Assembly (NCBI GenBank): GCA_045599365.1 | Contig: JAZRVS010000032.1 | Span: forward strand, 236-64,235 | DNA: 64,000 bases | Source: Bacteroidales bacterium | GTDB taxonomy: Bacteria > Bacteroidota > Bacteroidia > Bacteroidales > UBA1715 | Reading direction: 5' to 3' | Part shown: positions 7,051 through 35,783 of the stretch, one piece after another | How the letters are laid out: every line of letters begins with the position of its first letter | Numbering within the stretch: the first letter of the stretch is position 1 | The notes under the pieces: generated by a model | What the model saw: only the letters and a program-made list of their open reading frames with translations | The model's database searches: none | What the model was told of the DNA's origin: nothing | Position numbers and translations under genes: made by a program

Positions 7051-7056
7051 AAATAG

Positions 7057-7514: not shown

Positions 7515-7650
7515 GGTAATGATATACATCTTGGCTGTATTTTAGTCGTCCAATGAAGTCTCTTTGTGTAATCAACTTACCATTATGAAAATCAAGCTAA
7601 AACCTGTCAACTGATACCTGATTACAAGTGATTATACAGCCAACTTGTAA
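7515..7650 (-). repeat. ~140-150-bp dispersed intergenic repeat, copy 1 (inverted relative to copies 2 and 3)
   Basis: The reverse complement aligns with 12231-12377 and 35630-35783. Shared blocks are TACAAGTTGG..TATAAT, GTAAGTTGATTACAcAAAGAGA and CAAGATGTATaTCATT. The terminal 10-bp arms TTGGCTGTAT/ATACAGCCAA are perfectly complementary. Confidence 0.8.
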
Positions 7651-7666
7651 ATTATTTCCTTAATAT

Positions 7667-8428
7667 TTACTTTGAAAATGCTATTGGATTTGCAACATTT
7701 TTGTAACTAATTAAATCGCATTTAAGAGAACCAATAAGCATATCAAGTTCTATTCGAATAGGTATTTTATTTTCATCGTTGGTAACGTAGAGTGTCATAT
7801 CATCTTCATCGTCAAAAATGCGACCGACTTCGCATATTGGCATAAATTTCATTACTTTGAATTTGCCTGCTTTTGTTTTGATAGTTGTATTGCCTTTATA
7901 AACAATATACATAGGGTATACATCACCGCCAAAATATGTTATAAATTCAATTGTATCGCCTATATGGCAATTACCAAATTGATAACTGCGAGCATTGTAA
8001 AATGCAGAAACAATATCGGCAATATTTTTAGGAACTTTTTTCTCTCCTTTTTTAGAACTGATTACTACATCACGAGTTCTATCAAATGTTGTTAGTTCGT
8101 AGTCGTAGTAATCTCCTTCGTGGACATCGCGTACTGCCTTATATGGTAGGCCGTTATTTTTATCGTACCAAGTTTTGTAACGGTCAGCGAGAGGACAAAA
8201 AACTTTTGCGATGCCAGTTGTTTCTATGTAGGCTTCACCATAGTAAACATTTTTACCTTCATCGTTAATTTCTTTTACAGATAAAGTTGCAGTTCCGCCA
8301 TCAACTATTCCGTAATACACTAAATATTTGAGTTCTTCGCCAGCTTTGTATGCTTTGTTTTGTGCGAAAGATGAAAGAGCCATAAGTAGGCTTGCTCCAC
8401 AAATTGCTATTCTTTGTAATGTTTTCAT
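7667..8428 (-). CDS. DUF3108-like secreted protein
   Basis: Signal peptide MKTLQRIAICGASLLMALSSFAQ followed by a YLVYYGIVDGGTATL-type beta-rich sequence. Start moved to the internal ATG at 8428. Confidence 0.55.
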   Translation of the reverse strand: MKTLQRIAICGASLLMALSSFAQNKAYKAGEELKYLVYYGIVDGGTATLSVKEINDEGKNVYYGEAYIETTGIAKVFCPLADRYKTWYDKNNGLPYKAVRDVHEGDYYDYELTTFDRTRDVVISSKKGEKKVPKNIADIVSAFYNARSYQFGNCHIGDTIEFITYFGGDVYPMYIVYKGNTTIKTKAGKFKVMKFMPICEVGRIFDDEDDMTLYVTNDENKIPIRIELDMLIGSLKCDLISYKNVANPIAFSK

Positions 8429-8477
8429 AGTCGTAAGTTTCTTTAAAAATTCCAAATATTGTGCCAAAGCTCAACTA

Positions 8478-10877
8478 TTAAATTTTCATAGTTAATTTTA
8501 GATTTAATCTGCGAGATGTTAAGTAATTTGGTACAGCGAAATATTTATTGGAAACATCTTCAATCCAGAAGTATGAAATTTTGTTGGCATTATCAAACAA
8601 ATTGAAAATTTCCAATCCCAAAGCAAGGTTCTTTATTTTTGATTTGGATAGTTGTAATTTTTCATCAATAAAAACATACAAAAATCCAATATCCAAACGG
8701 GTGTACGATGAAATTTTATAATCATCAAATTCTTCATATGTTGCTGTTGGTGTTGCAGTTGGAATATTCGTGCCAGCAATAAAGGTCATATTCATTTTCA
8801 AGCGTTCGCTACCAGGAAGAAAATCTTGGAAGAACATACTGAAATTGAGAAATTGATCGTTTGCGCGGCGAATTTCTTCCGTTGATTTATTGGCTAAATG
8901 TTCTCGTGCGCGCATAAGAGAAATGTTTATCCACGACTCTACACCAGGAACGAATTCCCCATTGAGTTTCGTATCTATACCTGTAATGTAGCCGTCGGCG
9001 CGTAGATTTGGATAATATGAAATGGTAACATTGTCAATGGTGTAGGGAATAACATCTCGGAGAACCTTTGCATATAGTTCAGTATTCCAAAAAAAAGGTC
9101 TGCTCCATAGCGTAAGGTCTTGCGAGTATCCAAACACAAAATGTGTAGATTTCTGAGGTTTGATGTTAGTATAGAATCTTCCGCTATTATCCACCAGTTC
9201 CTTGAATTCTGTAGGTTGATAGTAGATGCCCGAAGCAAAGGAAATTCTATTGCTTTTTGCGTTGTTTGGTTTAAACAAAAATCTAATACGTGGATTCAAT
9301 AAAATTTTTTCAGAATACGTGTCGTATGTACCACGTATGCCCGCATTAATTTTGAGTGTTGACTGTTGCTCGTTGTTGAAGTAAAATCTTCGTGATACTC
9401 CTGCGTAGGTTGCTCCAATCGTTTGATTGTGCGTTATTTTTGAATTTGCCGTGTTTTTCAGCAAAATTGCTGTGTCGGAATAAGGATGGGCATAATTCGC
9501 GGAATCTATGTATGTCCACTCGTTGTACAACGCGTTATATTCCGATGAACTAATTGATGCGCCCCAGATTATGGATAGTGGTCCCAATATGTGGCAACCA
9601 TCGTGCATAACGGTTATGTTATTTGTTTTGAGCTTGTTTCGTCCGTGTTCAAGGAAGCTTCCTATTGCTAAAATTGCCGAGGAATCTTCAACTAATTTAT
9701 CTCCGTTGTTAAAACTTTCGCTCAACCGGTACTGACTTAGCACATCAAAATTTTCATCTTCCAGTGCGTGATAATACAATGCCTTAAAGTCAAGTTTTGT
9801 TCGGTGTGAAGGCATATAACTGAGAGATAGCGAGTTACCCAAATTTTGGTAGGTGTACTTTTCTTCTCCTTCAAAATAAATAGTCATTTTGTACGATTTT
9901 GTTTGACTGCCAAAATCTGTCATTCGTTTGTCTGGTAGAAAAGAATAGGTGTTGTTTGCTCCATAAATCCAGTACGATAGTGTAAGTTTTGGGTTGATTT
10001 TGTATTTCATCAAACTTTGAAAATCGTAAAATACAGGTTTGTATTCCCCCGTTTCATCGAGTGTTTTGAGTACGAGTGATGTGTTTTTGTATCGTACACC
10101 AGCAAGAATACTGAATCTCTGAGACTTATCGGTACCTTGAGCAGTAATGTTTACATCCATAAAACTTGCATCGGCCTGTATTTGAAACTCTTCAACGTCT
10201 TTGTATGTTACGTTTAAGACACTTGACATTTTGTCGCCGTAGTTGATGTCAAACCCACCGCTGGAAAAATCAACTCTGTCAACCATATACGGATTGATAA
10301 TACTTAATCCTTCTTGTTTGTCGGAACGAGCCATCGTTGGTTTGAAGGCTGGGACCCCATTGACGTAAACCAAATTCTCGTCATAACTTCCACCACGTAC
10401 TGAATATTGGGAACTTAGTTCAGATTTTGTATTTACACCAGCAAATGTTTTTAAACCGCCTTCTATACCTGAAAGTGACAATCCTGTTATTGCAGTAGCC
10501 TTTTCCGATGAAAGACTTGTGATGTTTTCTTCAGCTTCTTTGTTGTATGATATTTTGACTTTGGGTATTTCAAATACGTTGATTTTCAGTACGGGAGAGT
10601 ATGTTTTCTTTTCAGTCGTCAGTGTTATTTCTGTGGTATGATCAAAATAACCCATTTTACTAAAAAAAATGGTTGATTTTTGATTTAATGGAAGTTCAAT
10701 CTGATAATGCCCATCTTCCTTGGTAATAACAAGCGAATTTGTTTCAGTGCACGAGATGGTTGCAAACGGAATGGCATTCCCTTTTTGATCAACGACTTTC
10801 CCCTGCAGAATACCTTTGTCTTGTGCAAAAACAATGTTTGCAGCACAAAGAAAAAATATACAGAGAAATTGTTTCAT
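8478..10877 (-). CDS. TonB-dependent-receptor-like outer-membrane beta-barrel with CarboxypepD_reg domain
   Basis: Signal peptide MKQFLCIFFLCAANIVFAQ followed by GKVVDQKGNAIPFATI, then about 700 aa of aromatic-rich beta-barrel ending in ...LKLTMKI. Confidence 0.75.
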   Translation of the reverse strand: MKQFLCIFFLCAANIVFAQDKGILQGKVVDQKGNAIPFATISCTETNSLVITKEDGHYQIELPLNQKSTIFFSKMGYFDHTTEITLTTEKKTYSPVLKINVFEIPKVKISYNKEAEENITSLSSEKATAITGLSLSGIEGGLKTFAGVNTKSELSSQYSVRGGSYDENLVYVNGVPAFKPTMARSDKQEGLSIINPYMVDRVDFSSGGFDINYGDKMSSVLNVTYKDVEEFQIQADASFMDVNITAQGTDKSQRFSILAGVRYKNTSLVLKTLDETGEYKPVFYDFQSLMKYKINPKLTLSYWIYGANNTYSFLPDKRMTDFGSQTKSYKMTIYFEGEEKYTYQNLGNSLSLSYMPSHRTKLDFKALYYHALEDENFDVLSQYRLSESFNNGDKLVEDSSAILAIGSFLEHGRNKLKTNNITVMHDGCHILGPLSIIWGASISSSEYNALYNEWTYIDSANYAHPYSDTAILLKNTANSKITHNQTIGATYAGVSRRFYFNNEQQSTLKINAGIRGTYDTYSEKILLNPRIRFLFKPNNAKSNRISFASGIYYQPTEFKELVDNSGRFYTNIKPQKSTHFVFGYSQDLTLWSRPFFWNTELYAKVLRDVIPYTIDNVTISYYPNLRADGYITGIDTKLNGEFVPGVESWINISLMRAREHLANKSTEEIRRANDQFLNFSMFFQDFLPGSERLKMNMTFIAGTNIPTATPTATYEEFDDYKISSYTRLDIGFLYVFIDEKLQLSKSKIKNLALGLEIFNLFDNANKISYFWIEDVSNKYFAVPNYLTSRRLNLKLTMKI

Positions 10878-10993
10878 TCCACAAAAATACATAAAACCAA
10901 TTTAGAAACGATATAAAAGAAATGATATTATAAAATAGAATGGATAATAGTTTATATTTACAAAAAATTTGGGAGATACATATTTCGTTTAAG

Positions 10994-11464
10994 ATGAAGA
11001 AGATTTTAGTACTATTTGCTGTGGCGTTATTGTTTGTCTCGTGCGCAAAAAAAAATCCGATTGTTTTTCAAAAAAAAACAGATTTATTAGAAGTAACAGT
11101 AAGTCTTGATACCAATAATACGTTTCGTTATACTGCTAATAGTCCTATTGGCGCTGCATTTGATGAATCGGGAACATATAGTATTAAGGATTCGTTATTG
11201 ATATTACAGTTTAAATATGACAATTACGAACATCTTTGTTATACAGTTCCGTTGACAAATGATACTTCTATTATTGCAACGGTAGGAAATACGACATTCC
11301 TTTTCCCGACAGTAAAGGAAATTGAGGAATCAGGTTTTCATAGAACGGAAGCAGATATTATATTAGAATTGAATGAATTACAATCAAATTCTCAATTGCA
11401 AGATTCTATAGGGACTCGTTATTTAAAAATGATTTCAGGGGATTTGTCGTTAATTTTAAAATAG
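10994..11464 (+). CDS. lipoprotein, unknown function
   Basis: MKKILVLFAVALLFVSCAKK carries a lipobox. Confidence 0.5.
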   Translation: MKKILVLFAVALLFVSCAKKNPIVFQKKTDLLEVTVSLDTNNTFRYTANSPIGAAFDESGTYSIKDSLLILQFKYDNYEHLCYTVPLTNDTSIIATVGNTTFLFPTVKEIEESGFHRTEADIILELNELQSNSQLQDSIGTRYLKMISGDLSLILK

Positions 11465-11465
11465 G

Positions 11466-12215
11466 ATGGAAATTAGTAAAAATAAGATAAAGTATTTTGC
11501 AACATTTGCTAAAAAGAAAATTCGAGATGAGTCGGGATTGTTTATCGTTGAGGGTAATAAAATGGTGGCAGAGTTGTTACAGACTGATTACCAGATAGAG
11601 GCGATAGTGGCGACAAAAGAGTGGCTTACAAACAATACGTTACGTTGTGAGTATTATGAGGCGACATACGAAGAAATAAGTAAAATTTCTTTATTGCAAC
11701 ATCCACAAGATGTGTGGGCTTTAGTAAGAAAGAAGTCTATTAGTTCTGATATTGTGTTGAACAATTCATTGATATTGGCATTGGATGGTGTTCAAGATCC
11801 TGGAAATATGGGAACAATTATTCGGCTTGCCGATTGGTATGGGATATCACAAATTATTTGTTCAAAAGAATGTGTTGATGTGTATAATCCTAAGGTTGTT
11901 CAAGCTACAATGGGCGCAATTTATAGAGTGTCGGTTATTTATGTTGATTTATCTTTGTTTTTATCAAATCAAATAGATCAAGAAATATATATTGCTGATA
12001 TGAGTGGCGAAAATGTATATACAACTGAATTAAAACAAAAGGCAATACTTGTAATGGGAAATGAAGGTAATGGTATTAGTGAAGAAGTTGCAAAAGTTGC
12101 GACAAAAAAAATTCATATTCCAACATTTAATGTGAACCAAACATCTGAATCACTTAATGTTGCAATTGCGACAGCCGTGCTATGTTCTGAATTCAAAAGA
12201 AGAACAATCAATTAA
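11466..12215 (+). CDS. TrmH/SpoU-family RNA 2'-O-methyltransferase
   Basis: Contains the SpoU motifs DGVQDPGNMGTIIR, VMGNEGNGIS and SLNVAIATAV. Confidence 0.8.
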   Translation: MEISKNKIKYFATFAKKKIRDESGLFIVEGNKMVAELLQTDYQIEAIVATKEWLTNNTLRCEYYEATYEEISKISLLQHPQDVWALVRKKSISSDIVLNNSLILALDGVQDPGNMGTIIRLADWYGISQIICSKECVDVYNPKVVQATMGAIYRVSVIYVDLSLFLSNQIDQEIYIADMSGENVYTTELKQKAILVMGNEGNGISEEVAKVATKKIHIPTFNVNQTSESLNVAIATAVLCSEFKRRTIN

Positions 12216-12230
12216 AGATGAAAACTATAT

Positions 12231-12377
12231 ACAAGTTGGTCGCATAATTATTCTCAATTAGGCATCAGCAGTTAGTTTTCAGTCTTGTTCCCATAATAGT
12301 AAGTTGATTACACAAAGAGATTTATCTGACGACTAATAATTGGCAACTAAATTACTATCAAGATGTATATCATTACC
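12231..12377 (+). repeat. ~150-bp dispersed intergenic repeat, copy 2
   Basis: See copy 1. It fills the whole gap between convergent trmH-like and GT4 genes, ending at the GT4 stop codon. Confidence 0.8.
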
Positions 12378-13496
12378 TTAAAGATTGTTATAAACTTCGA
12401 TTGTATTTTTTGCGAAATTTTCTAAAGAGAATTTCTTCATTTGAATTAAACCTTCATCAACAAGGTGCGAACGAAGATTTGGATTTTCGTGTAAGTCAAG
12501 CATTGCTTGAGAAATACTTTCAATTTTGTATGGGTCAACGTAGTACCCTGCAGGTCCACCAACTTCAGGTAGAGAAGATGTGTTTGCTAAAATAGTTGGC
12601 GTTTTGCTTTTGAAAGCTTCTAAAATTGGAATGCCAAAACCTTCATATTTTGAAGGATATAAGAAAAATTCTGCACATTGGTACAAAATTGGCAACACAT
12701 CATTTTCAATGTTAGAACGGAGTAGAATTCTGTCCTGTAAATTGTGAGTTTCTATATAAGCGAGTAATTTTTTATAGTATTCTCGACCTTTACCAACAAT
12801 AACGAGAGGTATATCAATTTTATTACGGATTTCGTTGTAGGCTTCAACAAGGGTTAGAACATTTTTTCTATCCATAATTGCACCAACGTAAAGCATATAC
12901 TTAGGGGGAATATTCAAATTCTTTAAAACTGTTTCTTTTTGTTGACTAGAGAATTCTTGGTCAAAAATATCGCTACACGTTTGGTAAACCACGTGAATTT
13001 TTTGAGGATTAACATTGAAATGTTTGATAATATCGTTTTTTGTTGCTTCGCTCGTTGCAATGATTGCGTTAGAATTGGTACAAGCGTTTTGCCACTTTAA
13101 ATCGTATATTTTTTTATCAATCAATGGAAAATCGGCAGGAAATAATTTATAAATTAAGTCGTGAATTGTAACAACAGATTTTATGTTTGTATTTTCAATT
13201 CCAATTGGAAGTTCATGACTTAAACCATGGTAAATATCAATGTCATTGTCAGCAAGCGAATTGATGATAGTTCGCGTTCTCCAAACTGATTTTGATGTAA
13301 AAATACTAGGACAAACAACTTCAAAATTTTGGGTAAAAAAATAACTTTCTTCTTTGTATGTTACAGATGGTGTAAAAAGGATATATGAATTTTCTGGATA
13401 ATATTGATATAAGCTACGAATTAAACTTCGGCTATAATTGCCGAGACCAGTTCCATTGTGAAACAATCGTTTTGCATCAAATCCAATTCGTAACAT
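12378..13496 (-). CDS. glycosyltransferase, GT4/GT1 (GT-B) family
   Basis: The C-terminal domain carries the ...PSKYEGFGIPILEA... motif. Confidence 0.8.
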   Translation of the reverse strand: MLRIGFDAKRLFHNGTGLGNYSRSLIRSLYQYYPENSYILFTPSVTYKEESYFFTQNFEVVCPSIFTSKSVWRTRTIINSLADNDIDIYHGLSHELPIGIENTNIKSVVTIHDLIYKLFPADFPLIDKKIYDLKWQNACTNSNAIIATSEATKNDIIKHFNVNPQKIHVVYQTCSDIFDQEFSSQQKETVLKNLNIPPKYMLYVGAIMDRKNVLTLVEAYNEIRNKIDIPLVIVGKGREYYKKLLAYIETHNLQDRILLRSNIENDVLPILYQCAEFFLYPSKYEGFGIPILEAFKSKTPTILANTSSLPEVGGPAGYYVDPYKIESISQAMLDLHENPNLRSHLVDEGLIQMKKFSLENFAKNTIEVYNNL

Positions 13497-13499
13497 ATC

Positions 13500-14216
13500 T
13501 TAAAAATTAGCTAAAATATTGACAATATGTATTGGTTTTATAGGAATATTGTTTCGTTCAACGTACGCGTTGATATTCATTAAACAAGAGAATTCTGTTC
13601 CTGTAATATATTCTGCACCGGAATCTAAAGCATATCGAACTTTTTGTTCAACCATAGCAGAGGAAATGTCTTTTTGCTTTATTGAGAATGTGCCACCAAA
13701 ACCGCAACAAGTTGTACTTTCCTCCATTTCAACGATTTCAATTCCTTTAACATTTTGCAAAAGAGTGCGTGGCTCTGTTGTCATTCCGTATTCACGAAGA
13801 GCCGAACACGAGTCATGAACAGTCACTTTGCCGTTGAAAGTAGAACCTAAATCGGTAATATTTAGAACATTTACGAGAAAATCACAAATGTCAAATAGTC
13901 TATTGGAAAGGTTTTGTGCTTGAAGTTTTTCTTCTTCGTTGTCGAACAAATCTGCGTAGCGTCGTTTTATGAACCCAGTACAAGAACCACCTGGACTTAC
14001 AATATAATTAGAACCAGTAAAGTCTTTTAAAAATTTACGAGCCAATTCTTTGGATTGACTTGTATATCCACTATTAAATTGTGGCTGTCCGCAACACGTT
14101 TGATTTTGATCGTAGTGAATATTACAACCAACATGTTTCAATATTTTTATCAAATTTTCTCCAATTAGAGGTTCAATTTGATCAACAAAGCACGGAATAA
14201 ATAGATCTACTTCCAT
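13500..14216 (-). CDS. (Fe-S)-binding CCG-domain oxidoreductase, LutA/GlpC-like
   Basis: MEVDLFIPCFVDQ...CCGQP...CCGFGG shows the duplicated cysteine-rich CCG motif. Start moved to 14216 to avoid overlap with the upstream gene. Confidence 0.7.
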   Translation of the reverse strand: MEVDLFIPCFVDQIEPLIGENLIKILKHVGCNIHYDQNQTCCGQPQFNSGYTSQSKELARKFLKDFTGSNYIVSPGGSCTGFIKRRYADLFDNEEEKLQAQNLSNRLFDICDFLVNVLNITDLGSTFNGKVTVHDSCSALREYGMTTEPRTLLQNVKGIEIVEMEESTTCCGFGGTFSIKQKDISSAMVEQKVRYALDSGAEYITGTEFSCLMNINAYVERNNIPIKPIHIVNILANF

Positions 14217-14281
14217 CAAAAAATCTTTATTTGCAAATGTAATTATTTTGCTTTTAAAAAAAGTGGCGAAATGTAAAAGAA

Positions 14282-15712
14282 TTATAGTGATGCTGTTTTT
14301 TCTTTTACATCGTAAGAAACAATTATTGCAATGAATCCCCAAAATAGAGATGCAACTTTGTCCATATCAAGAAAATCATTCAAAAATGCGTGTAGATAAT
14401 AGGTTATTAGTCCCAGTAGTAAGAGCAGTACGGTTTCTTTTATCCGTTCGTTTTGTGTTTGATTGTACAAATTGAATCCAATAATTAAAACGGTAATGAG
14501 AATTGCCACAAAAGATAAACAGCCTAATAAACCTGCATCAGCCAATAATCCTAAATATTCGCTATGAGCGTTTCCTCCATTTGCGGCATTGGTGCTAATT
14601 ACGGTTTTATCTTCCGAATGTTGAAATGGTGCATAAAGAAACATATATGTGCCTGGTCCGAATCCGCAAATAGGGCGTTCTTGAAACATTCGTATGGCGC
14701 TCTTCCAACGATTTATTCGTTCTGTGTTGGAATCGTCAGATGAGGTATTACTCACCGATTTTAGATGCGATAGGAAGTCTGTGCTTGAAACTTCGGTATT
14801 TTTTGACATTTTGTACATAATGTCATTATAAAATGGAGCGATGAGCAAAATAGCGCATAAACCTGTAATAATGAGTGTTTTTATTTTTATGCGAAGTTTT
14901 AAAACTATCCATAATGCAAATACCGCTAAAATCCCTAGCCAAGCAGCTCGTGTATATGAAAATAGTAATGCAGTGCAAAGCAATAGTAGTAAAAGTATGT
15001 TGAAAAATCTAAAACTAAAGTTGTTCCTTGATTGTTTTATTACAATAAACATTGCTGGTATTAGAAGAGCCAATGAAGCGCCATACGAAGTGTGATCTTT
15101 GAAAAAAGGTTGCATCACTCGGTATGATGCATCATGCGAAAAATATGATGCTGAGTGAATTATTAGGGTATATGTGATTACAATGGAAAATCCTAAAACG
15201 TAAGCTAAAATATATTTTATGATGTTCTTTTCATCGACAACGAATTGCGTTACAATGAAATAAAAACAAACGATAAACCAAATTCTAGTTAGTAAATATT
15301 TGAAAGAAACTATCGGCATTTCGGATAATAACGAGGTGATGAAGAGCCAACCTAAGTAGATGTATATACAAATGCTAACAGGATGTTTGAGGATTTCTTT
15401 GTCAAATTTTTTTTCGCTAATAAGTTTTAGAAAAAAAATTACCATTGTTAAAAACAAAAATGGTTCAGTTGGCAAACTCATATTGAGAGGCGTGTTGGGG
15501 ATAAATTCCGATAGTTCTACAGATAGTGGCGTAAAGAACATTATGAGAATCAGCAATTTGTCTAATGCAAAAAACGATAGAAAGCACAACGCAAGAACGA
15601 AAGGTACTAATGAAACGAGATAGGATTCATTCCAAATACCAATCATACTTGCGACGATGAAAACTATTGCCGCAATGTAGGTGGAAATGATTTTTTTTTG
15701 TTCTGAAATCAC
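14282..15712 (-). CDS. O-antigen ligase / Wzy_C-domain polytopic membrane protein
   Basis: About 11 predicted TM helices and the FSYTRAAWLGILAV motif typical of the O-antigen ligase family. Confidence 0.7.
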   Translation of the reverse strand: MISEQKKIISTYIAAIVFIVASMIGIWNESYLVSLVPFVLALCFLSFFALDKLLILIMFFTPLSVELSEFIPNTPLNMSLPTEPFLFLTMVIFFLKLISEKKFDKEILKHPVSICIYIYLGWLFITSLLSEMPIVSFKYLLTRIWFIVCFYFIVTQFVVDEKNIIKYILAYVLGFSIVITYTLIIHSASYFSHDASYRVMQPFFKDHTSYGASLALLIPAMFIVIKQSRNNFSFRFFNILLLLLLCTALLFSYTRAAWLGILAVFALWIVLKLRIKIKTLIITGLCAILLIAPFYNDIMYKMSKNTEVSSTDFLSHLKSVSNTSSDDSNTERINRWKSAIRMFQERPICGFGPGTYMFLYAPFQHSEDKTVISTNAANGGNAHSEYLGLLADAGLLGCLSFVAILITVLIIGFNLYNQTQNERIKETVLLLLLGLITYYLHAFLNDFLDMDKVASLFWGFIAIIVSYDVKEKTASL

Positions 15713-16743
15713 TATTCTTGAACTTCTTTTTCCAACTCTTCTTTACGATGAAAATCGTTGACGAGTTCTATGAAAACGAGAACTATGAACGTAAATATAA
15801 ATGTAGCAAGAGTTGTTATTCCGACAATGATTGTACGTTTTGGCTTAGCTTTTTTGTCTGGAACTTGAGCCTTGTTCACAACGAAATAGTGACTTAATGT
15901 TTGTTCTGCATCAACCTTGGCTTCTTTATATTTTTGATTTAATGCACTTAAATTTTCGCTTTCAAATTCCAAGAAATCTCGAAGAGAAACATAGGCTGCG
16001 CCATATTTAGCTAACGTATCAAGTTGAGATTTTACTCGTTCCGCTCCTTTTGTGTTCCCTGATGCAACAGCTTGAGCGTAAGCTTCGTTTACGACTTCAG
16101 ATTGTGATTCATAGTCGTAAATACCTTTCAACATAATTTGTTGTAGAGAGTCTTTATAGAGAGAAATTTGTGCTTCTTTTGCTTTGTATTCGTTTTCAAC
16201 AATTCTCATTGTCTCTTTTGCACGTTTCTGTTCCATTTGGTTCATAATGGTATCAATTAAAGCAGCAAGATCGTTTGCCATTAAAGCCGCGGTATCTGGG
16301 TTTGCATCAAGAACAGAAATTTCAACAGCCATATATTCTGTGCGTTTAGCAGAAATACGTTTGTTGTATTTTTTTAACATTTTGTCATTTGGATGGGAAA
16401 CAGTGGCAGAATCAATGCCGTAGTGTTGCCATAAGTTATGTTTTTGAATCATTTTGGTTCGTAACTCATCGCTGTTTAGAACTTGAAGAAGTTGTTCTGT
16501 TTCTTTGTCTTCACCATAAATAGATTCAATTTTTGCCGCATCTTTTACTTTGATGTGTTCCGAAATAGGAAGTGATGGTGCAGGATACACAACGACAGAC
16601 GAACGATATAACGGAGTTATAAGTAAAGAAATTATAATGGCAACTACGGCACCAATAATCGTTGTTATAAAAAGAGGTTTTTTGTACTGAAAAACTTTGA
16701 AAATCAAATCGTGAGATTCAAAAGAGTAGCGATTATTTTCCAT
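15712..16743 (-). CDS. Wzz-like polysaccharide chain-length determinant protein
   Basis: An N-terminal TM helix followed by PLYRSSVVVYP, a long coiled-coil periplasmic region and a C-terminal TM helix. Confidence 0.6.
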   Translation of the reverse strand: MENNRYSFESHDLIFKVFQYKKPLFITTIIGAVVAIIISLLITPLYRSSVVVYPAPSLPISEHIKVKDAAKIESIYGEDKETEQLLQVLNSDELRTKMIQKHNLWQHYGIDSATVSHPNDKMLKKYNKRISAKRTEYMAVEISVLDANPDTAALMANDLAALIDTIMNQMEQKRAKETMRIVENEYKAKEAQISLYKDSLQQIMLKGIYDYESQSEVVNEAYAQAVASGNTKGAERVKSQLDTLAKYGAAYVSLRDFLEFESENLSALNQKYKEAKVDAEQTLSHYFVVNKAQVPDKKAKPKRTIIVGITTLATFIFTFIVLVFIELVNDFHRKEELEKEVQE

Positions 16744-16744
16744 G

Positions 16745-17359
16745 TTATTTGAATAAGCCAAAAAGTTCTGCGTCAATTCTGTTAATTATTTTGCTAAAAT
16801 CGGAAGGATTATCAATAAAATTGATTGAGTCTGTGTCAATGATAAGAGTACGACCATCGTACGATTTAATCCACGTATCGTATCTTCGATTTAAACTTTC
16901 TAAGTAATCAATACGAATGGCATTTTCGTACTCACGACCTTTGCATTGAATTCGTCTTACCAAAGTTGGAATGGATGCTTTAAGGTAAATTAACAAATCT
17001 GGTGTTTGTGTTAATTGTTCTATTTGACGGAACAAGGAAAAATAAGTTTCAAAATCTCGAGTTGCCATTAATCCCATCCCATGAAGATTTGGTGCGAAAA
17101 TATACGCGTCTTCGTATATCGTTCTGTCTTGAATTACATCCTTACCCGAATTACGAATATTCATAATACTTTGCAATCTATTGTGCAAATATGAAATTTG
17201 GACGTTGAATGCCCAAGCTTTCATATCTTGATAAAAATCGTTTAAGTATGGATTATCATCAACAACTTCGTAGTTTGCTTCCCAGTTGTAATGTTTTGCC
17301 AACATTCCTGTTAATGTTGTTTTTCCAACGCCAATGTTTCCTGCAACAGCTATATGCAT
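16745..17359 (-). CDS. deoxynucleoside kinase
   Basis: P-loop IAVAGNIGVGKTTL plus dNK-family sequence (DRTIYED). Confidence 0.85.
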   Translation of the reverse strand: MHIAVAGNIGVGKTTLTGMLAKHYNWEANYEVVDDNPYLNDFYQDMKAWAFNVQISYLHNRLQSIMNIRNSGKDVIQDRTIYEDAYIFAPNLHGMGLMATRDFETYFSLFRQIEQLTQTPDLLIYLKASIPTLVRRIQCKGREYENAIRIDYLESLNRRYDTWIKSYDGRTLIIDTDSINFIDNPSDFSKIINRIDAELFGLFK

Positions 17360-17379
17360 ATCAAAAAATATTTAGTATG

Positions 17380-17498: not shown

Positions 17499-17522
17499 CG
17501 TGACTAAAATTATAGGTATAAT

Positions 17523-28116: not shown

Positions 28117-28134
28117 GTGCTATAAATTCTTGTA

Positions 28135-28142
28135 CAAAGATA
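28135..28142 (-). promoter_or_regulatory. -7 element TATCTTTG (minus strand) for the PKD-repeat gene
   Basis: TAnnTTTG, 19 nt upstream of start 28116. Confidence 0.45.
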
Positions 28143-28152
28143 ACATTTATGC

Positions 28153-28192
28153 AAAAAAAAAGAGACGTTTGATAAAGAAACGTCTCTTCTTA
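28153..28192 (-). terminator. rho-independent terminator ending the glycogen operon
   Basis: An 11-bp perfect stem AAGAGACGTTT / AAACGTCTCTT, followed on the minus strand by T8. Confidence 0.7.
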
Positions 28193-28213
28193 TTTGTGAA
28201 TACTTATATCACA

Positions 28214-30778
28214 TTATATCCAACGAACGTAAGAGAAATCTTGACGATATGGAAGATTTTTGTTAGAAGGATACATTCGAATACCATAGTTAAATATACC
28301 AGAACGATTTGGTGTTGTTGCTAATGTGTAAACAGCCAAATTACCTTCCATTGCGGAGAATGTAAATGGATGGCATTTAACAATTTCGCGTTCTTCAGCC
28401 TCATTTTGTTCTGTTAAAATGAATTCAAAATTGATATCTTCTGGTTTCAAGCCTTTAAGGTCAACTTTAATAGTTCCGTTGTATGGCTCACCAAGTTTAA
28501 AAGGTTCGTTTGATTTGTCAATTTCAACAGATTCAACGTAGATTTGATCCCAAACTTCTGCAACTTTTTGTTTCCAACTAACTAATTCGTCAACAAGTTT
28601 ATAGTTGTCTTTTTTCAAAATTGCAGCACGTTCTCCCAATTTGTTATAGAAATGTTCTTTGTAGTCATCAATCATACGTTTTGTTGTGAATTCAGGAGCG
28701 ATTTCAGCAACGCATTTTTTGAAATATTGAATCCATGCATGAGGAACATCATCAACGCCACGTTCGTAGAACAATGGTACAATTTCGTTTTCCAAGATAG
28801 TGTAAATCATTTCACTATCAAGTTTGTTTTGCATATCTTGATTTTGATATGTACGTTTTTCAGGCAATGCCCAACCAGCACCTTCACGATAGCCTTCGCA
28901 CCACCAACCATCAAGTACGCTGAAGTTCATGGCACCATTCATTACAGCCTTCATACCTGATGTACCCGATGCTTCTAATGGTCGAGTTGGCGTATTCATC
29001 CAAATATCAACACCTTGTACTAACTGTTTGGCAAGATTCATATCGTAGTTTTCCAAGAAGACTATTTTACCCAAGAATTCAGGTAATTTGGAAATACGTA
29101 CAATTTCTTTAATAATATCTTGTCCTGGCTTATCTGCAGGGTGAGCTTTTCCTGCAAATACGAATTGTACTGGGTAGTCTGGATTGTTAACGATTTTGCT
29201 CAAACGTTCTAAGTTGCTAAACAACAAATAAGCACGTTTGTATGTGGCAAAACGGCGAGCAAAACCGATAGTCAATACATTTTTGTTTAATGTTTGGGTT
29301 ACGCGAACAATCTTCTTTGGATCTTCAAATTTGTCTGTCCATGATTTACGAAGAGCTTCTTTTGCGTATGTGATTAACTTTTCACGTTGAGCTTGACGAA
29401 TTTTCCAAATCTTTTCATCTGCAACACTATAGATTTTGTTCCAATATGATGCATCTGATTTATTTTCTAAAAATTCTTCTCCAAATGTTTCCTTGTATAA
29501 TTTTTGCCAAATTTTTGCAGTCCATGTTCCGTAGTGAACACCATTGGTAACATATCCGATAGGTGATTCATCAACTGTATAACCTGGCCATAAGTTTTTG
29601 AACATTTTTTGTGAAACAAGTCCGTGCAAACGGCTTACGCCATTGATGCCACACGATGTACAAATAGCAAAGTGACTCATAGAGAAGAATTCACCATTAT
29701 TATCTGGGTACATTCTACCAAGGTTCATAAATTCATTCCAATTTAACCCAAGACGTTCTGGGAATTGACCAAGATATGTCATCATCAATCCTTCTGGGAA
29801 AGAATCGTGTCCTGCTGGAACTGGAGTGTGAGTTGTGTACAACGAAGATGCACGAACAATTTCCAATGCTTTAGGGAAAGAACAATTTTCGTGTTTAATC
29901 AACGTACGAAGACGTTCCAAGTTGATAAATGCTGCGTGACCTTCATTACAATGGAACAAATCGCATTTTTCGCCAACAGCTTCCAATAAGCGTACACCAC
30001 CAATACCAAGCAACATTTCTTGTTTTAGACGATTTTCGTTATCACCGCCATACAATGCGTGAGTACAACCTTTATCGTCATCACGGTTTTCAGAAATATC
30101 AGTATCCATCAAATACAATTTGATTCGACCAACTTTCACCAACCAAATTTGTGCGTGCATAAGACGCCCTGGCATACCAACTTGAATCATCACTCGGTTT
30201 CCATTTGCGTCAACAACAGGAGAAATAGGTAATTCTGATTGATTTTGAGGATTATATTCTGCAATTTGGTCTCCTTCTAACGATAATGTTTGTTTGAAAT
30301 AACCATATTTATATAAGAAACCAACCGCAACCATATTTGTGTTAGTATCACTGGCTTCTTTCAAATAATCTCCAGCTAAAATACCAAGACCACCAGAGAA
30401 TATTTTTAATGAATCATCAAGACCATATTCCATACTAAAGTATGCAATACGAGGTGTTTTTTCGTCTGGTTGAACAGACATATAGTCATTGTATTTTTTC
30501 AATACAGAATTGTAACGATCAATAAAGTCTTGATCTTTTTCCAATTGACTCAATCGTTCAGCGCTAATACCTTTTAATACTGCGATTGGATTTTGTGTTT
30601 TTGCCCAAAGTTTTTCGTCTATTTCTTGGAACAATTCCATTGCTTCGTAGTTCCATGTCCACCAAAGGTTATTTGCTAATACACTCAAATTTTGCAAATT
30701 CTTTGGAAATGTTGACTGTACGATCACACTTCTCCATTGTGGATCGTTATGTCTGTTTTGATTTAAATTCGCTGCCAT
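28214..30778 (-). CDS. glgP: alpha-glucan phosphorylase (GT35)
   Basis: 854 aa. SMEYGL...GGLGILAGD and EASGTSGMKAVMNG (pyridoxal-phosphate lysine region) are typical of the alpha-glucan phosphorylase family. Confidence 0.9.
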   Translation of the reverse strand: MAANLNQNRHNDPQWRSVIVQSTFPKNLQNLSVLANNLWWTWNYEAMELFQEIDEKLWAKTQNPIAVLKGISAERLSQLEKDQDFIDRYNSVLKKYNDYMSVQPDEKTPRIAYFSMEYGLDDSLKIFSGGLGILAGDYLKEASDTNTNMVAVGFLYKYGYFKQTLSLEGDQIAEYNPQNQSELPISPVVDANGNRVMIQVGMPGRLMHAQIWLVKVGRIKLYLMDTDISENRDDDKGCTHALYGGDNENRLKQEMLLGIGGVRLLEAVGEKCDLFHCNEGHAAFINLERLRTLIKHENCSFPKALEIVRASSLYTTHTPVPAGHDSFPEGLMMTYLGQFPERLGLNWNEFMNLGRMYPDNNGEFFSMSHFAICTSCGINGVSRLHGLVSQKMFKNLWPGYTVDESPIGYVTNGVHYGTWTAKIWQKLYKETFGEEFLENKSDASYWNKIYSVADEKIWKIRQAQREKLITYAKEALRKSWTDKFEDPKKIVRVTQTLNKNVLTIGFARRFATYKRAYLLFSNLERLSKIVNNPDYPVQFVFAGKAHPADKPGQDIIKEIVRISKLPEFLGKIVFLENYDMNLAKQLVQGVDIWMNTPTRPLEASGTSGMKAVMNGAMNFSVLDGWWCEGYREGAGWALPEKRTYQNQDMQNKLDSEMIYTILENEIVPLFYERGVDDVPHAWIQYFKKCVAEIAPEFTTKRMIDDYKEHFYNKLGERAAILKKDNYKLVDELVSWKQKVAEVWDQIYVESVEIDKSNEPFKLGEPYNGTIKVDLKGLKPEDINFEFILTEQNEAEEREIVKCHPFTFSAMEGNLAVYTLATTPNRSGIFNYGIRMYPSNKNLPYRQDFSYVRWI

Positions 30779-30791
30779 TTACAGTTTTATA

Positions 30792-32264
30792 TTATTTATT
30801 GTTAGTTTTTTGTTTTTTTGTCGTCGATTTTGTTGTCTTTGTGGTTGCCTTTTTCTCTTTTTCAGTTTTTGTTGCTTTTGTTGCTTTTGTTGCTTTTGTC
30901 GTCTTTTTTTCTTTGACTACTTGGTTAGAAGCAGTTTTTTTCGTTGCTACCTTCTCAACTTTTTTAGAAGTTGTTTTTGTTTCTTTTTGTTTCTTTTTTG
31001 CATCTTCCAACTCTTTCAAAATAGCTGTATGTTTTGCAATTTCGGCATCAAGTTCATCTTTTGACAATGTTCCAAGTTTTGTACTCGTTGGTACTTTATT
31101 CAATTGTTCGGCGAAATCGGATACGATATTCATAAAGTTTATGAATGCTTCGTAAGGTGTTTGGTATGGACTAAAGCCAGCTTCATGATTGAAGAATTTC
31201 GTACTCATATAGTGGAAATTTTCGCTTGCTTGCAAACGATTCCAATCTGTTGTTAGTCTATCATCGTTTACCGCACGAACCAAACGGTGTAAAGAACTCA
31301 ATGTGTCAAACGCTTGTTTTTGAAGGTTATTTCCTAACCATGCAGATAAATCACGTTCTTCGTCAGCGCAAGATGTATATTGAGGAACACTCAAAACTGA
31401 AATTGGTTGTAGGTTCTTTATAACTTCAGAAGGTGTTACAAATGCTACATTTTTGTTAGCAACAATCATTGAAACAAAAGCCGAGAAAAAGTCAAATATG
31501 CCAGATTCAGCACGATTATGTACACCAAATGTGTTGTAGTCAAAAAACAAGTTTACTAATTCTTCTGATTCCAATGATTTTAAAATCCAAGCAGTGTATT
31601 TGTCAGCAGTTAGAGGCCATTCACTCCATGTTTGACGAGAAAAACGTAATGCTATGTCGTCTGTCAATTTGAAGTTGCGAAGAAGAACTTTTAGGCGAGG
31701 TTGTTTGTCGCAACAATACAAGAAATTTGGACTTTTCCATCCTAAAATTTGATCTGCGCCCTCAGCCAAAATACCATTGAACCCAAGATGATATATTTGT
31801 TCTCCTAATTCGTCAGAATAAACAAATCCTGTGTTTTTGAATACTTTAGGTTGTTGACCGAACAAAGCATTTATTTTTTCTACATTGGCTTGTGCTTGTA
31901 TTGCAAATTCATCGTTGTTGATAGTTGAAATCAACGAATGTGCATCTGTTTCTGCAACAAATTCAACACAACCTGTCTTTGCTAATTGTTTGAAACTCTC
32001 AATAACTTCAGGTGTGTACATTTCAAATTGTTCTAATGCACTTCCAGAGATAGAAAAACTCACTTTGAAAGCTTTCTTATTTGCATTAATAAGCGAAAGC
32101 AACAAGTTGTTCATCGGTATGAAGCACCGCTTCGCAATTGTCAACGCATTTGATTTGTTTGAAAAATCGTCATAATAATAGTGGTCCTGACCAATATCGA
32201 AGAAACGATACGAACGCAACCGAAATGGTTGATGAACCGAAAAATGCAAACAAATGTTTTTCAT
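30792..32264 (-). CDS. GH57-family alpha-amylase-like enzyme with Lys/Thr-rich C-terminal tail
   Basis: The N-terminus LHFSVHQPFRLRSYRFFDIG is GH57-like. The last ~70 aa are KKTTKATKATKATKTEKEKKATTKTTKSTTKKQK. Confidence 0.8.
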   Translation of the reverse strand: MKNICLHFSVHQPFRLRSYRFFDIGQDHYYYDDFSNKSNALTIAKRCFIPMNNLLLSLINANKKAFKVSFSISGSALEQFEMYTPEVIESFKQLAKTGCVEFVAETDAHSLISTINNDEFAIQAQANVEKINALFGQQPKVFKNTGFVYSDELGEQIYHLGFNGILAEGADQILGWKSPNFLYCCDKQPRLKVLLRNFKLTDDIALRFSRQTWSEWPLTADKYTAWILKSLESEELVNLFFDYNTFGVHNRAESGIFDFFSAFVSMIVANKNVAFVTPSEVIKNLQPISVLSVPQYTSCADEERDLSAWLGNNLQKQAFDTLSSLHRLVRAVNDDRLTTDWNRLQASENFHYMSTKFFNHEAGFSPYQTPYEAFINFMNIVSDFAEQLNKVPTSTKLGTLSKDELDAEIAKHTAILKELEDAKKKQKETKTTSKKVEKVATKKTASNQVVKEKKTTKATKATKATKTEKEKKATTKTTKSTTKKQKTNNK

Positions 32265-32270
32265 ATCTAA

Positions 32271-33572
32271 CTACCTTTCTGATAAATTTTTATACACTTC
32301 TTTGATTCGTTTTGCAGCATTATCCCATTTTATGCTGTCAACTTCTTTTTTTCCATATTCTCTAAACATTTGACCGAGAGCATCGTATGAAATAATACCA
32401 TAAATAGCATCTGCCATAGAATCAACATCCCAAAAGTCAACTTTTATGGCATGTTGTAATACTTCGGCAACACCAGATTGTTTAGAAATAATAACGGGCA
32501 CATTTGATCTCATTGCTTCCAATGGTGATATTCCAAACGGTTCTGATACAGAAGGCATTACGTAAACATCACTAATAGAAAGCATGTGAATAACGTCATC
32601 TCCTCTTAAGAAACCAGTAAAGAAGAAATTCTTTGAAATACCCAATTCGGCAGCGCGCCACATCATTTTTTCAAGCATATCGCCACTGCCAGCCATTACG
32701 AATTTTACATTCTTTTTCCTCTGTAAAACCTTTGCTGCGGCTTCCAAAAAATATTCTGGACCCTTTTGAAATGTAATACGCCCCAAGAATGTAACAATTT
32801 TGTCATCAAAAGATTTTTCAAATCGTAAAGATGATTTTGCTCCAATAGCTTCAACACCGTTATAAACGGTAGTTACTTTTGATTCAGGAACTCCATAGTG
32901 ATTGATAACTATGTTTCGAGTTAAATTGCTTACTGTCAAAACTCTATCTGCACAGTGCATTCCGCGTCGTTCCATATCGTAAACGATTTGGTTCACGTTC
33001 ATACCACTTCTATCAAATTCCGTCGCATGTACGTGTACAACAAGAGGTTTCCCTGATGCATTTTTTGCTGCAATCCCCGCATCATACGTCATCCAATCGT
33101 GAGCGTGTATTACGTCAAAATTAAATTTTTTTGCAATTTCTTCTGCAATATAAGCATAACTGCTTACTTCTTGCATAAGTCCACCACCATAGCCTCCATG
33201 AAGGTTTATTGTCCCAGTGTCGGCATTAGAGTACGTCTTGAATTGTCTATCAACAGAAACACGATTGTTAATTATATCGTAGTATTCATCTTCTGTGATG
33301 TAAGGAATCAAGTTGGCTCCAATAGTTACATATTGTATGTTCTTGTTCTTTTCTACTTCTGCACCGAAATGATAATGATTGATTTTTACTCGGATAGTAT
33401 TAGCACCTACAAGTTGCATTTTACTTTGATCCTCATCACCATAGGCACGCGGAACGACAAAAATAATGTCAACGCCCTGACGAAGCATAGCCTTTGTCAA
33501 GCCTAAACAAGCAGTTCCAAGACCGCCAGAAATATGTGGTGGAAATTCCCACCCAAACATTAGAACCTTCAT
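32271..33572 (-). CDS. GT4 glycosyltransferase, glycogen-synthase-like
   Basis: MKVLMFGWEFPPHISGGLGTAC plus a C-terminal PSVSEPFGISPLEAM motif, in a glycogen-operon context. Start moved to the ATG at 33572. Confidence 0.8.
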   Translation of the reverse strand: MKVLMFGWEFPPHISGGLGTACLGLTKAMLRQGVDIIFVVPRAYGDEDQSKMQLVGANTIRVKINHYHFGAEVEKNKNIQYVTIGANLIPYITEDEYYDIINNRVSVDRQFKTYSNADTGTINLHGGYGGGLMQEVSSYAYIAEEIAKKFNFDVIHAHDWMTYDAGIAAKNASGKPLVVHVHATEFDRSGMNVNQIVYDMERRGMHCADRVLTVSNLTRNIVINHYGVPESKVTTVYNGVEAIGAKSSLRFEKSFDDKIVTFLGRITFQKGPEYFLEAAAKVLQRKKNVKFVMAGSGDMLEKMMWRAAELGISKNFFFTGFLRGDDVIHMLSISDVYVMPSVSEPFGISPLEAMRSNVPVIISKQSGVAEVLQHAIKVDFWDVDSMADAIYGIISYDALGQMFREYGKKEVDSIKWDNAAKRIKEVYKNLSER

Positions 33573-33579
33573 ACCTTTT

Positions 33580-35529
33580 TTATTTTTGTTCTTCTGTTGT
33601 AAAATTTTCAATCAATTTACAAATTCGTAATGCTGCGCCAACCGACCACGCTTGAGAAATTGCGCCACGAGGCGTATAAGGAGGATTTCCATCAAACATT
33701 TCTCCGATTGTTCCCAATCCATATTCTTGTACCAAGTTCTCTAAATCGGCATAGATTCGTTTTATTTCAGATACACCAGAACGACCATGCAATTTTAAAT
33801 ATGCTTCAGCATACGGAGCTAAAAGCCACATTAAAACACCTCCGTTGTGGTATGCGATATCACGTTCTTCAATAGTACCTGTTATGGTCCCTTTGTAATC
33901 TCCACTTTTAGGTGATAAAGTTCTAATTCCACAGGGTGTAAGCAATTCTCGTCTCACGTGTTCAAGTACAGAATGACGTTTCTCATCATCAAGAGCAGAA
34001 AATGGCAATGAAGCCCCAAATATTTGACTTGGACGCATAGAAAAGTCTTTGTATCCATTTACACAAAAGTCTGCTAAATAACCTCGCTCTTCATCCCAAA
34101 ATGTTTCAACAAACGATTTTTCAATTTTTGCAGGAATATCTTTCCATTTATCATGGAATGACTTCTTTGTTATTAATTCTAATGCAAAGCAGATGGCATT
34201 ATACCATAAAGCGTTAACTTCAACAACATATCCCCAGCGTTTTACAACTGGAATACCATTGATTTTTGCGTCAACCCAAGTAAGTGCTTTATGTTCATTT
34301 GGCAAAAACAACAAGCCATTGTCATGCATAACCACATTGCCATTTTTTCCTGACATGTATGTATCAAGAATTTCTTCTACTTTCTTTTGATACAATTTGC
34401 GTGTTTGAGCAACGTCTTTTGTATTCCAATTGTATTGTTGTACAGAACGTATGAACCACAATGCGGTATCAATTGACTCTGTATTGGTGTGTTCTATGTT
34501 TCCTTTATTTTTGTAAATGTATCCATCAATATCAGGAGCCATTGTGTCAAGTACTGCACGACAAGTGTCCCAGTCGCCTTGAGCAAGCGTTAGTCCTGGT
34601 AATGAAACCAAACTGTCTCGTCCCCACAAACCTGTCCATGGAAAACTTGCAATCACTTCACACCCTTTAGGAGAACGATACATAAACTGACGAGCAGCAT
34701 GACGTAAACATTCTTCAAAATTGTTTTGAGAATCTCTTCCTTTGGTTTCTTTTTCAAATAGTGATTTTAACAAAGATGATTTGATTGCTTGTAATCCTGC
34801 AGAAAAGACTACTGAATCTCCTTCCTTCAACGACACTTCAAAGTATCCAGGAGTAAATAAATCTTCTTTACAATCATATCCACGTTCGCTTTCTCTGTCA
34901 TAGGTAAAATCTCTATACCAATCAGGAGCAGTGATAAATTCATTTTTCTTTGAAAGTTGCATATTCAAAGTCGGAAATTTCTCGTATAAACAACTTGCGA
35001 TACCATTTTCTATTACAGAATGACGTGTATTTGCAGATAAATTCGCATGAGTCATTTCATGAACTTTGCGGAATGCTAAGAATGGCCGTAATTGTAATGT
35101 TGCATTCTTTTGTGATGAACTTACAACAGAATAGCGAATCAAAAATCGTTCGTCATTGTCAACAAGAACCATCTCTTTTTTCAAAACTAAACCACCAACA
35201 CGAAAGACAATCGTTAAAATAGGTGAGTTTTTATATGATTCAATGTATTTGTATCCTGAAGGGAAAAATTCATTGTTGAATTTATGCGTAGCTAAATGAA
35301 ATGGAGTTTTTTCGAGAATAACTGTTTCGTCTAACGAGGATAAAAGCACATAGTTATCTCCATCAATTTCTTTGATAGGACTCACTAATAGTCCATGATA
35401 TTTACGAGTGTTACAACCAAGAATAGTTGAGTTCGCATACGATCCAGCTTTGTTCGTACGAAGGAATTCGCGTTGCAAAGAACTCTGTAAATCTGTAACT
35501 TGTTGACGAGAAAATTCTAAGTATTCCAT
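33580..35529 (-). CDS. glycogen debranching enzyme (amylo-alpha-1,6-glucosidase family)
   Basis: 649 aa. The N-terminus REFLRTNKAGSYANSTILGCNTRKYHGLL and a C-terminal (alpha/alpha)6-type region are typical of bacterial GDE-family proteins. Confidence 0.8.
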   Translation of the reverse strand: MEYLEFSRQQVTDLQSSLQREFLRTNKAGSYANSTILGCNTRKYHGLLVSPIKEIDGDNYVLLSSLDETVILEKTPFHLATHKFNNEFFPSGYKYIESYKNSPILTIVFRVGGLVLKKEMVLVDNDERFLIRYSVVSSSQKNATLQLRPFLAFRKVHEMTHANLSANTRHSVIENGIASCLYEKFPTLNMQLSKKNEFITAPDWYRDFTYDRESERGYDCKEDLFTPGYFEVSLKEGDSVVFSAGLQAIKSSLLKSLFEKETKGRDSQNNFEECLRHAARQFMYRSPKGCEVIASFPWTGLWGRDSLVSLPGLTLAQGDWDTCRAVLDTMAPDIDGYIYKNKGNIEHTNTESIDTALWFIRSVQQYNWNTKDVAQTRKLYQKKVEEILDTYMSGKNGNVVMHDNGLLFLPNEHKALTWVDAKINGIPVVKRWGYVVEVNALWYNAICFALELITKKSFHDKWKDIPAKIEKSFVETFWDEERGYLADFCVNGYKDFSMRPSQIFGASLPFSALDDEKRHSVLEHVRRELLTPCGIRTLSPKSGDYKGTITGTIEERDIAYHNGGVLMWLLAPYAEAYLKLHGRSGVSEIKRIYADLENLVQEYGLGTIGEMFDGNPPYTPRGAISQAWSVGAALRICKLIENFTTEEQK

Positions 35530-35558
35530 TTATCAAAAGGTTCTATTTCAGTCCGTGG

Positions 35559-35566
35559 CAAAATTA
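35559..35566 (-). promoter_or_regulatory. -7 element TAATTTTG (minus strand) for the glycogen operon
   Basis: TAnnTTTG, 30 nt upstream of start 35529. Confidence 0.35.
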
Positions 35567-35629
35567 GAAATTTTTTGCAAATAAAGAAATCAATTTTCTT
35601 CTTTATAATGAAAAAATTAGAGAATAATA

Positions 35630-35783
35630 TACAAGTTGGCAGTATAATCGTTTGTAATTGGGTGTCAGTAGTCAGTTTCCATTCTCAGTTTGATTTCCAT
35701 AAAGGAAAGTTGATTACATAAAGAGATTCGTTTGACAACTGATAACTGACAACTAAATTACTGTCAAGATGTATGTCATTGTC
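35630..35783 (+). repeat. ~150-bp dispersed intergenic repeat, copy 3
   Basis: See copy 1. It lies between the divergent glycogen-operon and thrS promoters. The terminal arms TTGGCAGTA/TACTGTCAA carry a compensatory change relative to copy 1. Confidence 0.8.

Follow-up and report, generated by a model that had tools for sequence, protein, structure and literature searches.

A probable IS1595-type miniature inverted-repeat transposable element at three intergenic sites of an uncultured gut Bacteroidales bacterium

Three copies of a non-coding repeat and their neighbouring genes

The 64,000-nucleotide stretch of DNA analysed here (the window) comes from an uncultured gut Bacteroidales bacterium (GenBank assembly GCA_045599365.1, contig JAZRVS010000032.1, positions 236 to 64,235 of the forward strand). 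This 64-kb window holds three copies of a non-coding repeat of 145-164 bp, which an earlier note on the same DNA had taken for either a structured RNA or a hairpin-forming mobile repeat, and which is very probably a miniature inverted-repeat transposable element (MITE). On one side of copy 1 (7515-7659, minus strand, 145 bp) is the stop codon (7667-7669) of a DUF3108 gene, and on the other a bidirectional terminator (7469-7497). Copy 2 (12220-12377, plus strand, 158 bp) is inserted between the convergent genes of a SpoU-type methylase and a glycosyltransferase. Copy 3 (35620-35783, plus strand, 164 bp) occupies the divergent intergenic region between a glycogen-debranching-enzyme gene (start at 35529, minus strand) and thrS (ATG at 35908, plus strand). 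These contexts, two convergent and one divergent, agree with the earlier description, as does the lack of coding capacity: no open reading frame (ORF) of at least 60 amino acids overlaps any of the three copies. The neighbouring proteins are typical of Bacteroidota, for example a TonB-dependent receptor with a CarboxypepD_reg domain and the DUF3108 protein, and the threonyl-tRNA synthetase (ThrRS) encoded in the window is 91-97% identical to that of uncultured 'Bacteroidales bacterium' metagenome-assembled genomes (MAGs) from animal guts. Look-ups of exact matches to three proteins encoded in the window returned nothing.

Copies 1 and 2 almost certainly belong to 3′ untranslated regions (UTRs). 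The terminator beside copy 1, between ruvX and the DUF3108 gene, is a strong intrinsic one (AAAAAAAGACGC-ACATA-GCGTCTTTTTTT). Copy 3 is close to two core promoters predicted from candidate Bacteroidetes -7 boxes of the TAnnTTTG type, being ~95 bp upstream of the thrS box and ~50 bp upstream of the debranching-enzyme box. The debranching-enzyme candidate reads TAATTTTG on the minus strand (35562-35569) and the thrS candidate reads TACCTTTG (~35877-35886). The region of the thrS box can be aligned with the relatives L085, L002 and L003, and the sequence there is not identical.

A MAFFT alignment of the three copies has ~165 columns, and their pairwise global identity is 72-76%. When a three-copy nhmmer profile was run on the window, it recovered these three copies only (E values of 1e-44 to 1e-50), and each conserved block occurs exactly three times, compared to 0.04-0.23 occurrences expected from shuffled sequence. 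Block counts and profile thus bear out the three places already reported. The copy-to-copy similarity reaches 10 nt farther 5′ than the start used previously, TACAAGTTGG, and the 5′ boundaries have been moved outward by that length. A central conserved block, G(T/A)AAGTTGATTACAYAAAGAGA, found at 35705-35726 (plus), 12299-12320 (plus) and 7559-7580 (minus), is specific to the window family, and the right-end segment of the element reads GGTAATGATATAC. The central block was also considered as an internal copy of the element's end and was rejected, since the match was no better than in shuffles. Length differences between copies map to short direct repeats within the element. Variation is seen in the GACAACT / GATAACT units near 35732-35752, where copy 1, compared with copies 2 and 3, has an internal deletion of 13 nt and one contig of a metatranscriptome (X2) has a GACAAC insertion. 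A 6-nt insertion, CCATTC, at 35679-35684 of copy 3 is missing from most copies in X1, a gut metagenome run that holds a relative at roughly 90% identity.

In X1, the core of the element has a word depth of 155-208, compared to ~5-6 for single-copy flanks (~25-35-fold), and dozens of contigs carry it next to flanking sequence that does not resemble the window. The relative in this metagenome carries tens of copies. The part with the highest depth is the central block, GTAAGTTGATTACAYAAAGAGA; toward the element ends depth falls, as unitig assembly would lead one to expect, and this fall carries no information. Exact core 20-mers searched in genome, metagenome and viral collections, with checks by nhmmer, gave only chance matches, and the window family is therefore missing from those collections.

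Target-site duplications and empty sites

A perfect direct repeat of 8 bp, overlooked in the earlier note, brackets each of copies 2 and 3 and can be read directly from the window sequence. For copy 2 this target-site duplication (TSD) is TTAAAGAT, at 12212-12219 on the left and 12378-12385 on the right, and for copy 3 it is AAAAATTA, at 35612-35619 and 35784-35791. In the empty sites of relatives, each of these 8-mers is found only once.

The site of copy 3 was compared with L085, a Logan contig of a relative whose ThrRS is 97% identical. The intergenic regions align base for base except that L085 lacks exactly the 164-bp element and one copy of the 8-mer; the empty site reads ...ataatga AAAAATTc tcaaaaaat..., with the 8-mer present once. 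The GTDB relatives L002-L004 and L006 are uninformative on this site, since their thrS upstream regions have diverged too far and lack synteny. The site of copy 2 is empty in two relatives. In an X1 contig, position 12219 is joined directly to 23 nt homologous to 12386-12408 (joint 12219->12409). In L225, a 16.8-kb Logan contig that is collinear with window positions 4003-15999 at ~87% nucleotide identity, the BLAST segments stop at window position 12219 and resume at 12378, and they overlap on L225 by exactly 8 nt (5570-5577). Copy 1 is also missing from L225, where the spacer is 37 bp compared to 196 bp in the window, and it is present in the X1 relative, in which a contig spanning 7562-7900 runs from the DUF3108 gene into the element. 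Since each copy is missing from at least one close relative, all three are insertions that are polymorphic among close relatives.

At the site of copy 2, the convergent methylase and glycosyltransferase genes of L225 overlap by 4 nt (TTAA) that hold both stop codons, and the insertion in the window is exactly at this overlap. The left TSD holds the methylase stop TAA (12213-12215) and the right TSD holds the glycosyltransferase stop on the minus strand (12378-12380). The duplication of TTAAAGAT hands each of the two genes its own stop codon, so that both ORFs are unchanged.

Terminal inverted repeats and the IS1595 family

The element is bounded by imperfect terminal inverted repeats (TIRs) of ~19-25 bp. 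The right TIRs of copy 1 (7515-7533, plus strand) and copy 2 (12359-12377, minus strand), read from outside in, are both GGTAATGATATACATCTTG, an exact match to the pattern GGYAATGATATACnnnTTG. The left TIR of copy 2 (12220-12238, plus strand) is GAAAACTATATACAAGTTG, and that of copy 1 (7641-7659, minus strand) is a degenerate GGAAATAATTTACAAGTTG. In copy 3, the left TIR GAGAATAATATACAAGTTG (35620-35638, plus strand) and the right TIR GACAATGACATACATCTTG (35765-35783, minus strand) match at 14/19 positions, and complementarity goes on to ~25 nt. Two lone 19-mers elsewhere in the window, GGGAATGATATATACGTTG and GGCAATGATACAGGAATTG (53037-53055 and 59780-59798, both minus strand), come within two mismatches of the pattern. 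Neither has a partner end close by, and both probably match by chance, inside coding sequence.

With the right end of copies 1 and 2 as the query, each GTDB species was searched through one genome, and TIRs were then paired within loci. Besides chance matches, the scan returned many gut Bacteroidales MAGs, namely Paludibacteraceae SUG3430, MAG123, PUUB51 and LOHA, Bacteroidales HGM05431 and HGM05423, and Muribaculaceae Horse_feces112. The paired TIRs delimit 31 small elements (91-408 bp). Perfect A/T-rich 8-bp TSDs flank at least 12 of them, and 7 more have TSDs with one mismatch. By nhmmer, no internal sequence is common to these 31 small elements and the window family.

Two longer elements with perfect 8-bp TSDs were found in one locus, L219, of Paludibacteraceae MAG123 (JAEDGZ010000020, 24001-32000). 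One of them is an insertion sequence (IS) of 2550 bp (L219:4531-7080), with the TSD CAAATTTA and a perfect 25-bp TIR, GGCAATGATATACATGTTGACCTAG, to which the right end of the window element is identical at 17/19 positions. Its transposase gene (L219:5965-6930) encodes a 321-aa protein that matches NCBIfam NF033547 'IS1595 family transposase' (E 7e-55), PF12762 DDE_Tnp_IS1595 (E 1.1e-41) and PF12760 Zn_ribbon_IS1595 (E 1.5e-7). Among annotated proteins of the plasmid collection, its nearest homologue (~41% identity) is listed as 'IS1595 family transposase' and comes from a Bacteroides faecis plasmid. When the L219 IS was compared with X1, only matches of 40-60 nt (80%+) in the conserved region of the transposase gene were found.

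The MITE call is made because of the 8-bp TSDs, the empty sites, the TIRs, the multiple copies and the TIR shared with an IS1595-family IS. The earlier note had held that clear TSDs together with a cognate transposase elsewhere would turn the repeat into an ordinary MITE; 8-bp TSDs are present at two copies, and an IS1595-family IS with the same TIR is present in another Bacteroidales genome. In all likelihood, then, the repeat is a non-coding, non-autonomous DNA transposon with ends and TSD of the IS1595-family type. We infer that an IS1595-type transposase mobilises this family. The TIRs of ~19-25 bp would be the binding and cleavage sites of such a DDE transposase, which would be supplied in trans by a full-length IS elsewhere, and every insertion would duplicate 8 bp of an A/T-rich target.

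A rival reading is a repetitive extragenic palindrome (REP) or bacterial interspersed mosaic element (BIME), which is spread on single-stranded hairpins by RAYT, an IS200/IS605-like TnpA. The window element has in common with these that it is extragenic, palindromic, multi-copy and often situated between convergent genes. However, it is 145-164 bp long rather than 20-40 bp, the 8-bp TSDs are not made by the HUH/RAYT mechanism, the termini match the TIR of a DDE (IS1595-family) IS, and no RAYT-like gene was seen, which makes a REP/BIME origin scarcely credible.

Several side observations were made on the IS1595-type elements themselves. L219:3024-8000 is a set of nested insertions: a ~1.3-kb transposase-less element with the same TIR (3693-7544, TSD TTTGGTAT) has inserted into an IS1595-type copy and separates its transposase halves (3178-3696 and 7545-8000), and the 2550-bp IS in turn interrupts that element. 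Besides the transposase, this IS carries a passenger ORF of 321 aa (4690-5655, minus strand), whose product matches nothing in Pfam or NCBIfam. The IS1595 family was reportedly defined by Siguier, Gagnevin and Chandler in 2009, and passenger genes are said to occur in some members.

Among the small elements, one sibling MITE family of 169-191 bp has GC-rich internal hairpins, the TIR GGYAATGATATACnnGTTGACCC and 8-bp A/T-rich TSDs. It has 24 members among the fetched loci, from several Paludibacteraceae and Bacteroidales MAGs (L103, L118, L132, L135, L139, L154, L165, L166, L174, L198, L204 and others). In an alignment of 19 members of this ~172-bp family, the TIR is essentially invariant and there are no compensatory pairs; these elements were extracted in mixed orientation, so the interior of the alignment is uninformative, and no conclusion can be carried over to the window family. 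In Muribaculaceae Horse_feces112, two near-identical 401-bp elements (L099:2337-2737 and L113:1085-1485) have the same TIR and perfect 8-bp TSDs, TTTTTTTA and TAAATAAA; a comparison of their 32 terminal bases on the left side showed one difference. These are a third non-autonomous family with the same ends. The sibling Bacteroidales MITEs (~172-190 bp in SUG3430, MAG123, PUUB51, LOHA and HGM05431, and the 401-bp pair) resemble the window family in the TIR core GGYAATGATATACnnnTTG, the 8-bp A/T-rich TSD and the size class. They differ from it in internal sequence (nhmmer), in their GC-rich hairpins and in a far better conserved TIR (19 copies).

Outside these genomes, the closest known systems include MITEs that descend from, or are moved by, IS1595-family ISs, such as a 165-bp MITE related to ISHwa6 in Haloquadratum walsbyi, an IS1595-related element on record with an inverted repeat of 25 bp and a direct repeat of 8 bp (PMC3852290, Table 4). 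Like the window element, it is non-coding, falls within ~150-170 bp, combines TIRs of ~19-25 bp with an 8-bp TSD, is present in several to many copies per genome, and has its TIR in common with an IS encoding a DDE_Tnp_IS1595 transposase. In contrast, the host of the window element belongs to another phylum, the internal sequences are unrelated, the left TIR in the window is degenerate, and the matching IS comes from another Bacteroidales family (the Paludibacteraceae MAG) rather than from the same genome. IS1595-family ISs such as ISApl4 have A/T-rich 8-bp direct repeats, short TIRs and a preference for non-coding A/T-rich targets (PMC12561309), as seen here, and the L219 element has the zinc-ribbon and DDE_Tnp_IS1595 transposase architecture of the family plus a passenger gene. 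The differences are that the window element has no transposase and that the L219 transposase is only ~41% identical to its B. faecis plasmid homologue.

Hairpin folding and RNA-level explanations

Since the ends are inverted copies of each other and internal segments are self-complementary, either strand of the element folds end-to-end as one hairpin. RNAfold pairs the first nucleotide of copy 3 with the last in a single long hairpin (-45.5 kcal/mol, z -4.3), and copy 1 likewise forms a single whole-length hairpin (z -4.2); the fold of copy 2 is no better than shuffles (z -1.1). The terminal helix has 21 pairs, and 92% of its cells are paired across the copies. The end pairings reported in the earlier note hold up, TTGGCTGTA with TACAGCCAA in copy 1 and TTGGCAGTA with TACTGTCAA in copy 3 (alignment columns 17-25 and 140-148), and this helix combines the inner part of the TIR with a short subterminal extension, in which the covarying pair (columns 22/143) is located. 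A second helix, TGTAATCA with TGATTACA, had been described as kept in copies 1 and 3; it is perfect in copy 1, whereas copy 3 needs two G-U wobbles and copy 2 has lost it. The internal helices are in fact unlike between copies, copy 1 using TGTAATCA/TGATTACA and copy 3 GTCAGT.../...ACTGAC. Copy 2 had been called more degraded in its 5′ half; it is degraded in its pairing, but its right end is intact.

These folds raise the possibility of a structured non-coding RNA family, either small RNA (sRNA) genes or cis-regulatory 3′/5′ UTR elements, whose helices are kept by compensatory changes and which was dispersed for an RNA function at each locus. Besides the strong folds of copies 1 and 3, such a family would account for the three pairs of the terminal helix that are altered on both sides, for the orientation of every copy on the same strand as an adjacent co-directional gene, and for the family-member fragments in the X2 metatranscriptome contigs. 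However, 31 of 500 column shuffles equal the three both-side changes, the RNAalifold covariation term is -0.21 kcal/mol, and three sequences are too few and cannot carry a statistical claim of covariation. Rfam cmscan, which the earlier note had proposed, matched no family when run on the whole window at the gathering score. At E<=10, a scan of 7300-12600 gave only weak chance matches, whose sRNA-like appearance is due to the terminator at 7469-7497. No TAnnTTTG motif is present on either strand of any copy, sigma-70-type sites in the copies are neither enriched nor conserved between copies, and no copy contains a terminator. The X2 contigs show diverged family members inside sequence longer than the element; they are unstranded and come from a relative, and they may reflect read-through transcription or DNA carry-over and are silent on a discrete RNA.

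All three loci are, moreover, empty in close relatives in which the flanking genes are intact, and the pairing of the ends is accounted for by insertions with TSDs and transposon TIRs. A structured RNA is therefore very improbable. Of the two possibilities entertained in the earlier note, the MITE-like hairpin stands, on the TSDs, the empty sites and the TIR-matched IS; the structured RNA is not supported, given the Rfam result, the small covariation term, the shuffles, the unlike internal helices and a position relative to genes that is not conserved.

A MITE may also be co-opted after insertion. Here, the element would influence the neighbouring genes in mRNA stability, in termination or in promoter activity, as a co-transcribed hairpin RNA in 3′ UTRs for copies 1 and 2 or through its place between divergent promoters for copy 3. 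The hairpin and the central block would act as a stabiliser, terminator, processing site or protein-binding site, and selection on the RNA, in addition to transposase recognition, would in that case favour the symmetric changes in the stem. MITE-like repeats with RNA-level effects have been reported in Neisseria (Correia), enterobacteria (ERIC) and Streptococcus pneumoniae (RUP), and the target duplication of Correia and RUP is TA. These repeats resemble the window element in being ~100-160 bp long, TIR-bounded, intergenic, able to form a whole-element hairpin and often co-transcribed with their neighbours; they differ in TIRs, TSDs and hosts, and the window element has no evidence of processing, promoter or terminator activity. 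Co-option gains from the placement of copies 1 and 2 immediately 3′ of stop codons, before or in place of a terminator, from the nearness of copy 3 to candidate -7 boxes, from a conserved central block that is dispensable for end recognition, and from family members in RNA-derived contigs. Nevertheless, insertion-free relatives keep the same genes and promoters, the intergenic placement is predicted by an A/T-rich target preference combined with purifying selection, and the high depth of the central block is perhaps an artefact of unitig assembly at repeat ends. We regard co-option as improbable.

Several results weigh against reading the repeat as an IS1595-type MITE. Copy 1 has no clean TSD (flanks AATATTAA and TATAATTA), and the left TIRs are degenerate, matching the L219 IS TIR at 14/19 positions. 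The three copies are only 72-76% identical. By tblastn, no IS1595-type transposase was found within the window, and beyond the TIR the window element and the L219 IS have no sequence in common; the element is therefore not a simple deletion derivative of that IS. In addition, drift alone is only a moderately good explanation for the three both-side pair changes, given the frequency in column shuffles. As to the low identity, copies 2 and 3 are missing from relatives at 87-97% identity yet are ~25% apart, so their differences must be mostly older than the insertions, and diverged subfamilies were mobile. The paired differences between copies would thus come from diverged subfamilies whose ends were kept symmetrical. 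The symmetry is probably there because one transposase must recognise both ends, and we infer that it is maintained for transposition.

The reading as an IS1595-type MITE is of use mainly for annotation: a transposon remnant is kept out of lists of candidate structured RNAs, and the case illustrates that "compensatory" RNA covariation can be mimicked by the inverted-repeat ends of a MITE. Also documented is a MITE/IS group, unnamed until now, of uncultured gut Bacteroidales, with the TIR GGYAATGATATACnnnTTG and 8-bp A/T-rich TSDs, that is linked to an IS1595-family transposase. The group can be used for repeat masking, for explaining assembly breaks in MAGs and for strain typing by insertion polymorphism, and it can be used to study insertions that land beside promoters and stop codons, such as the one at the overlapping TTAA stops.

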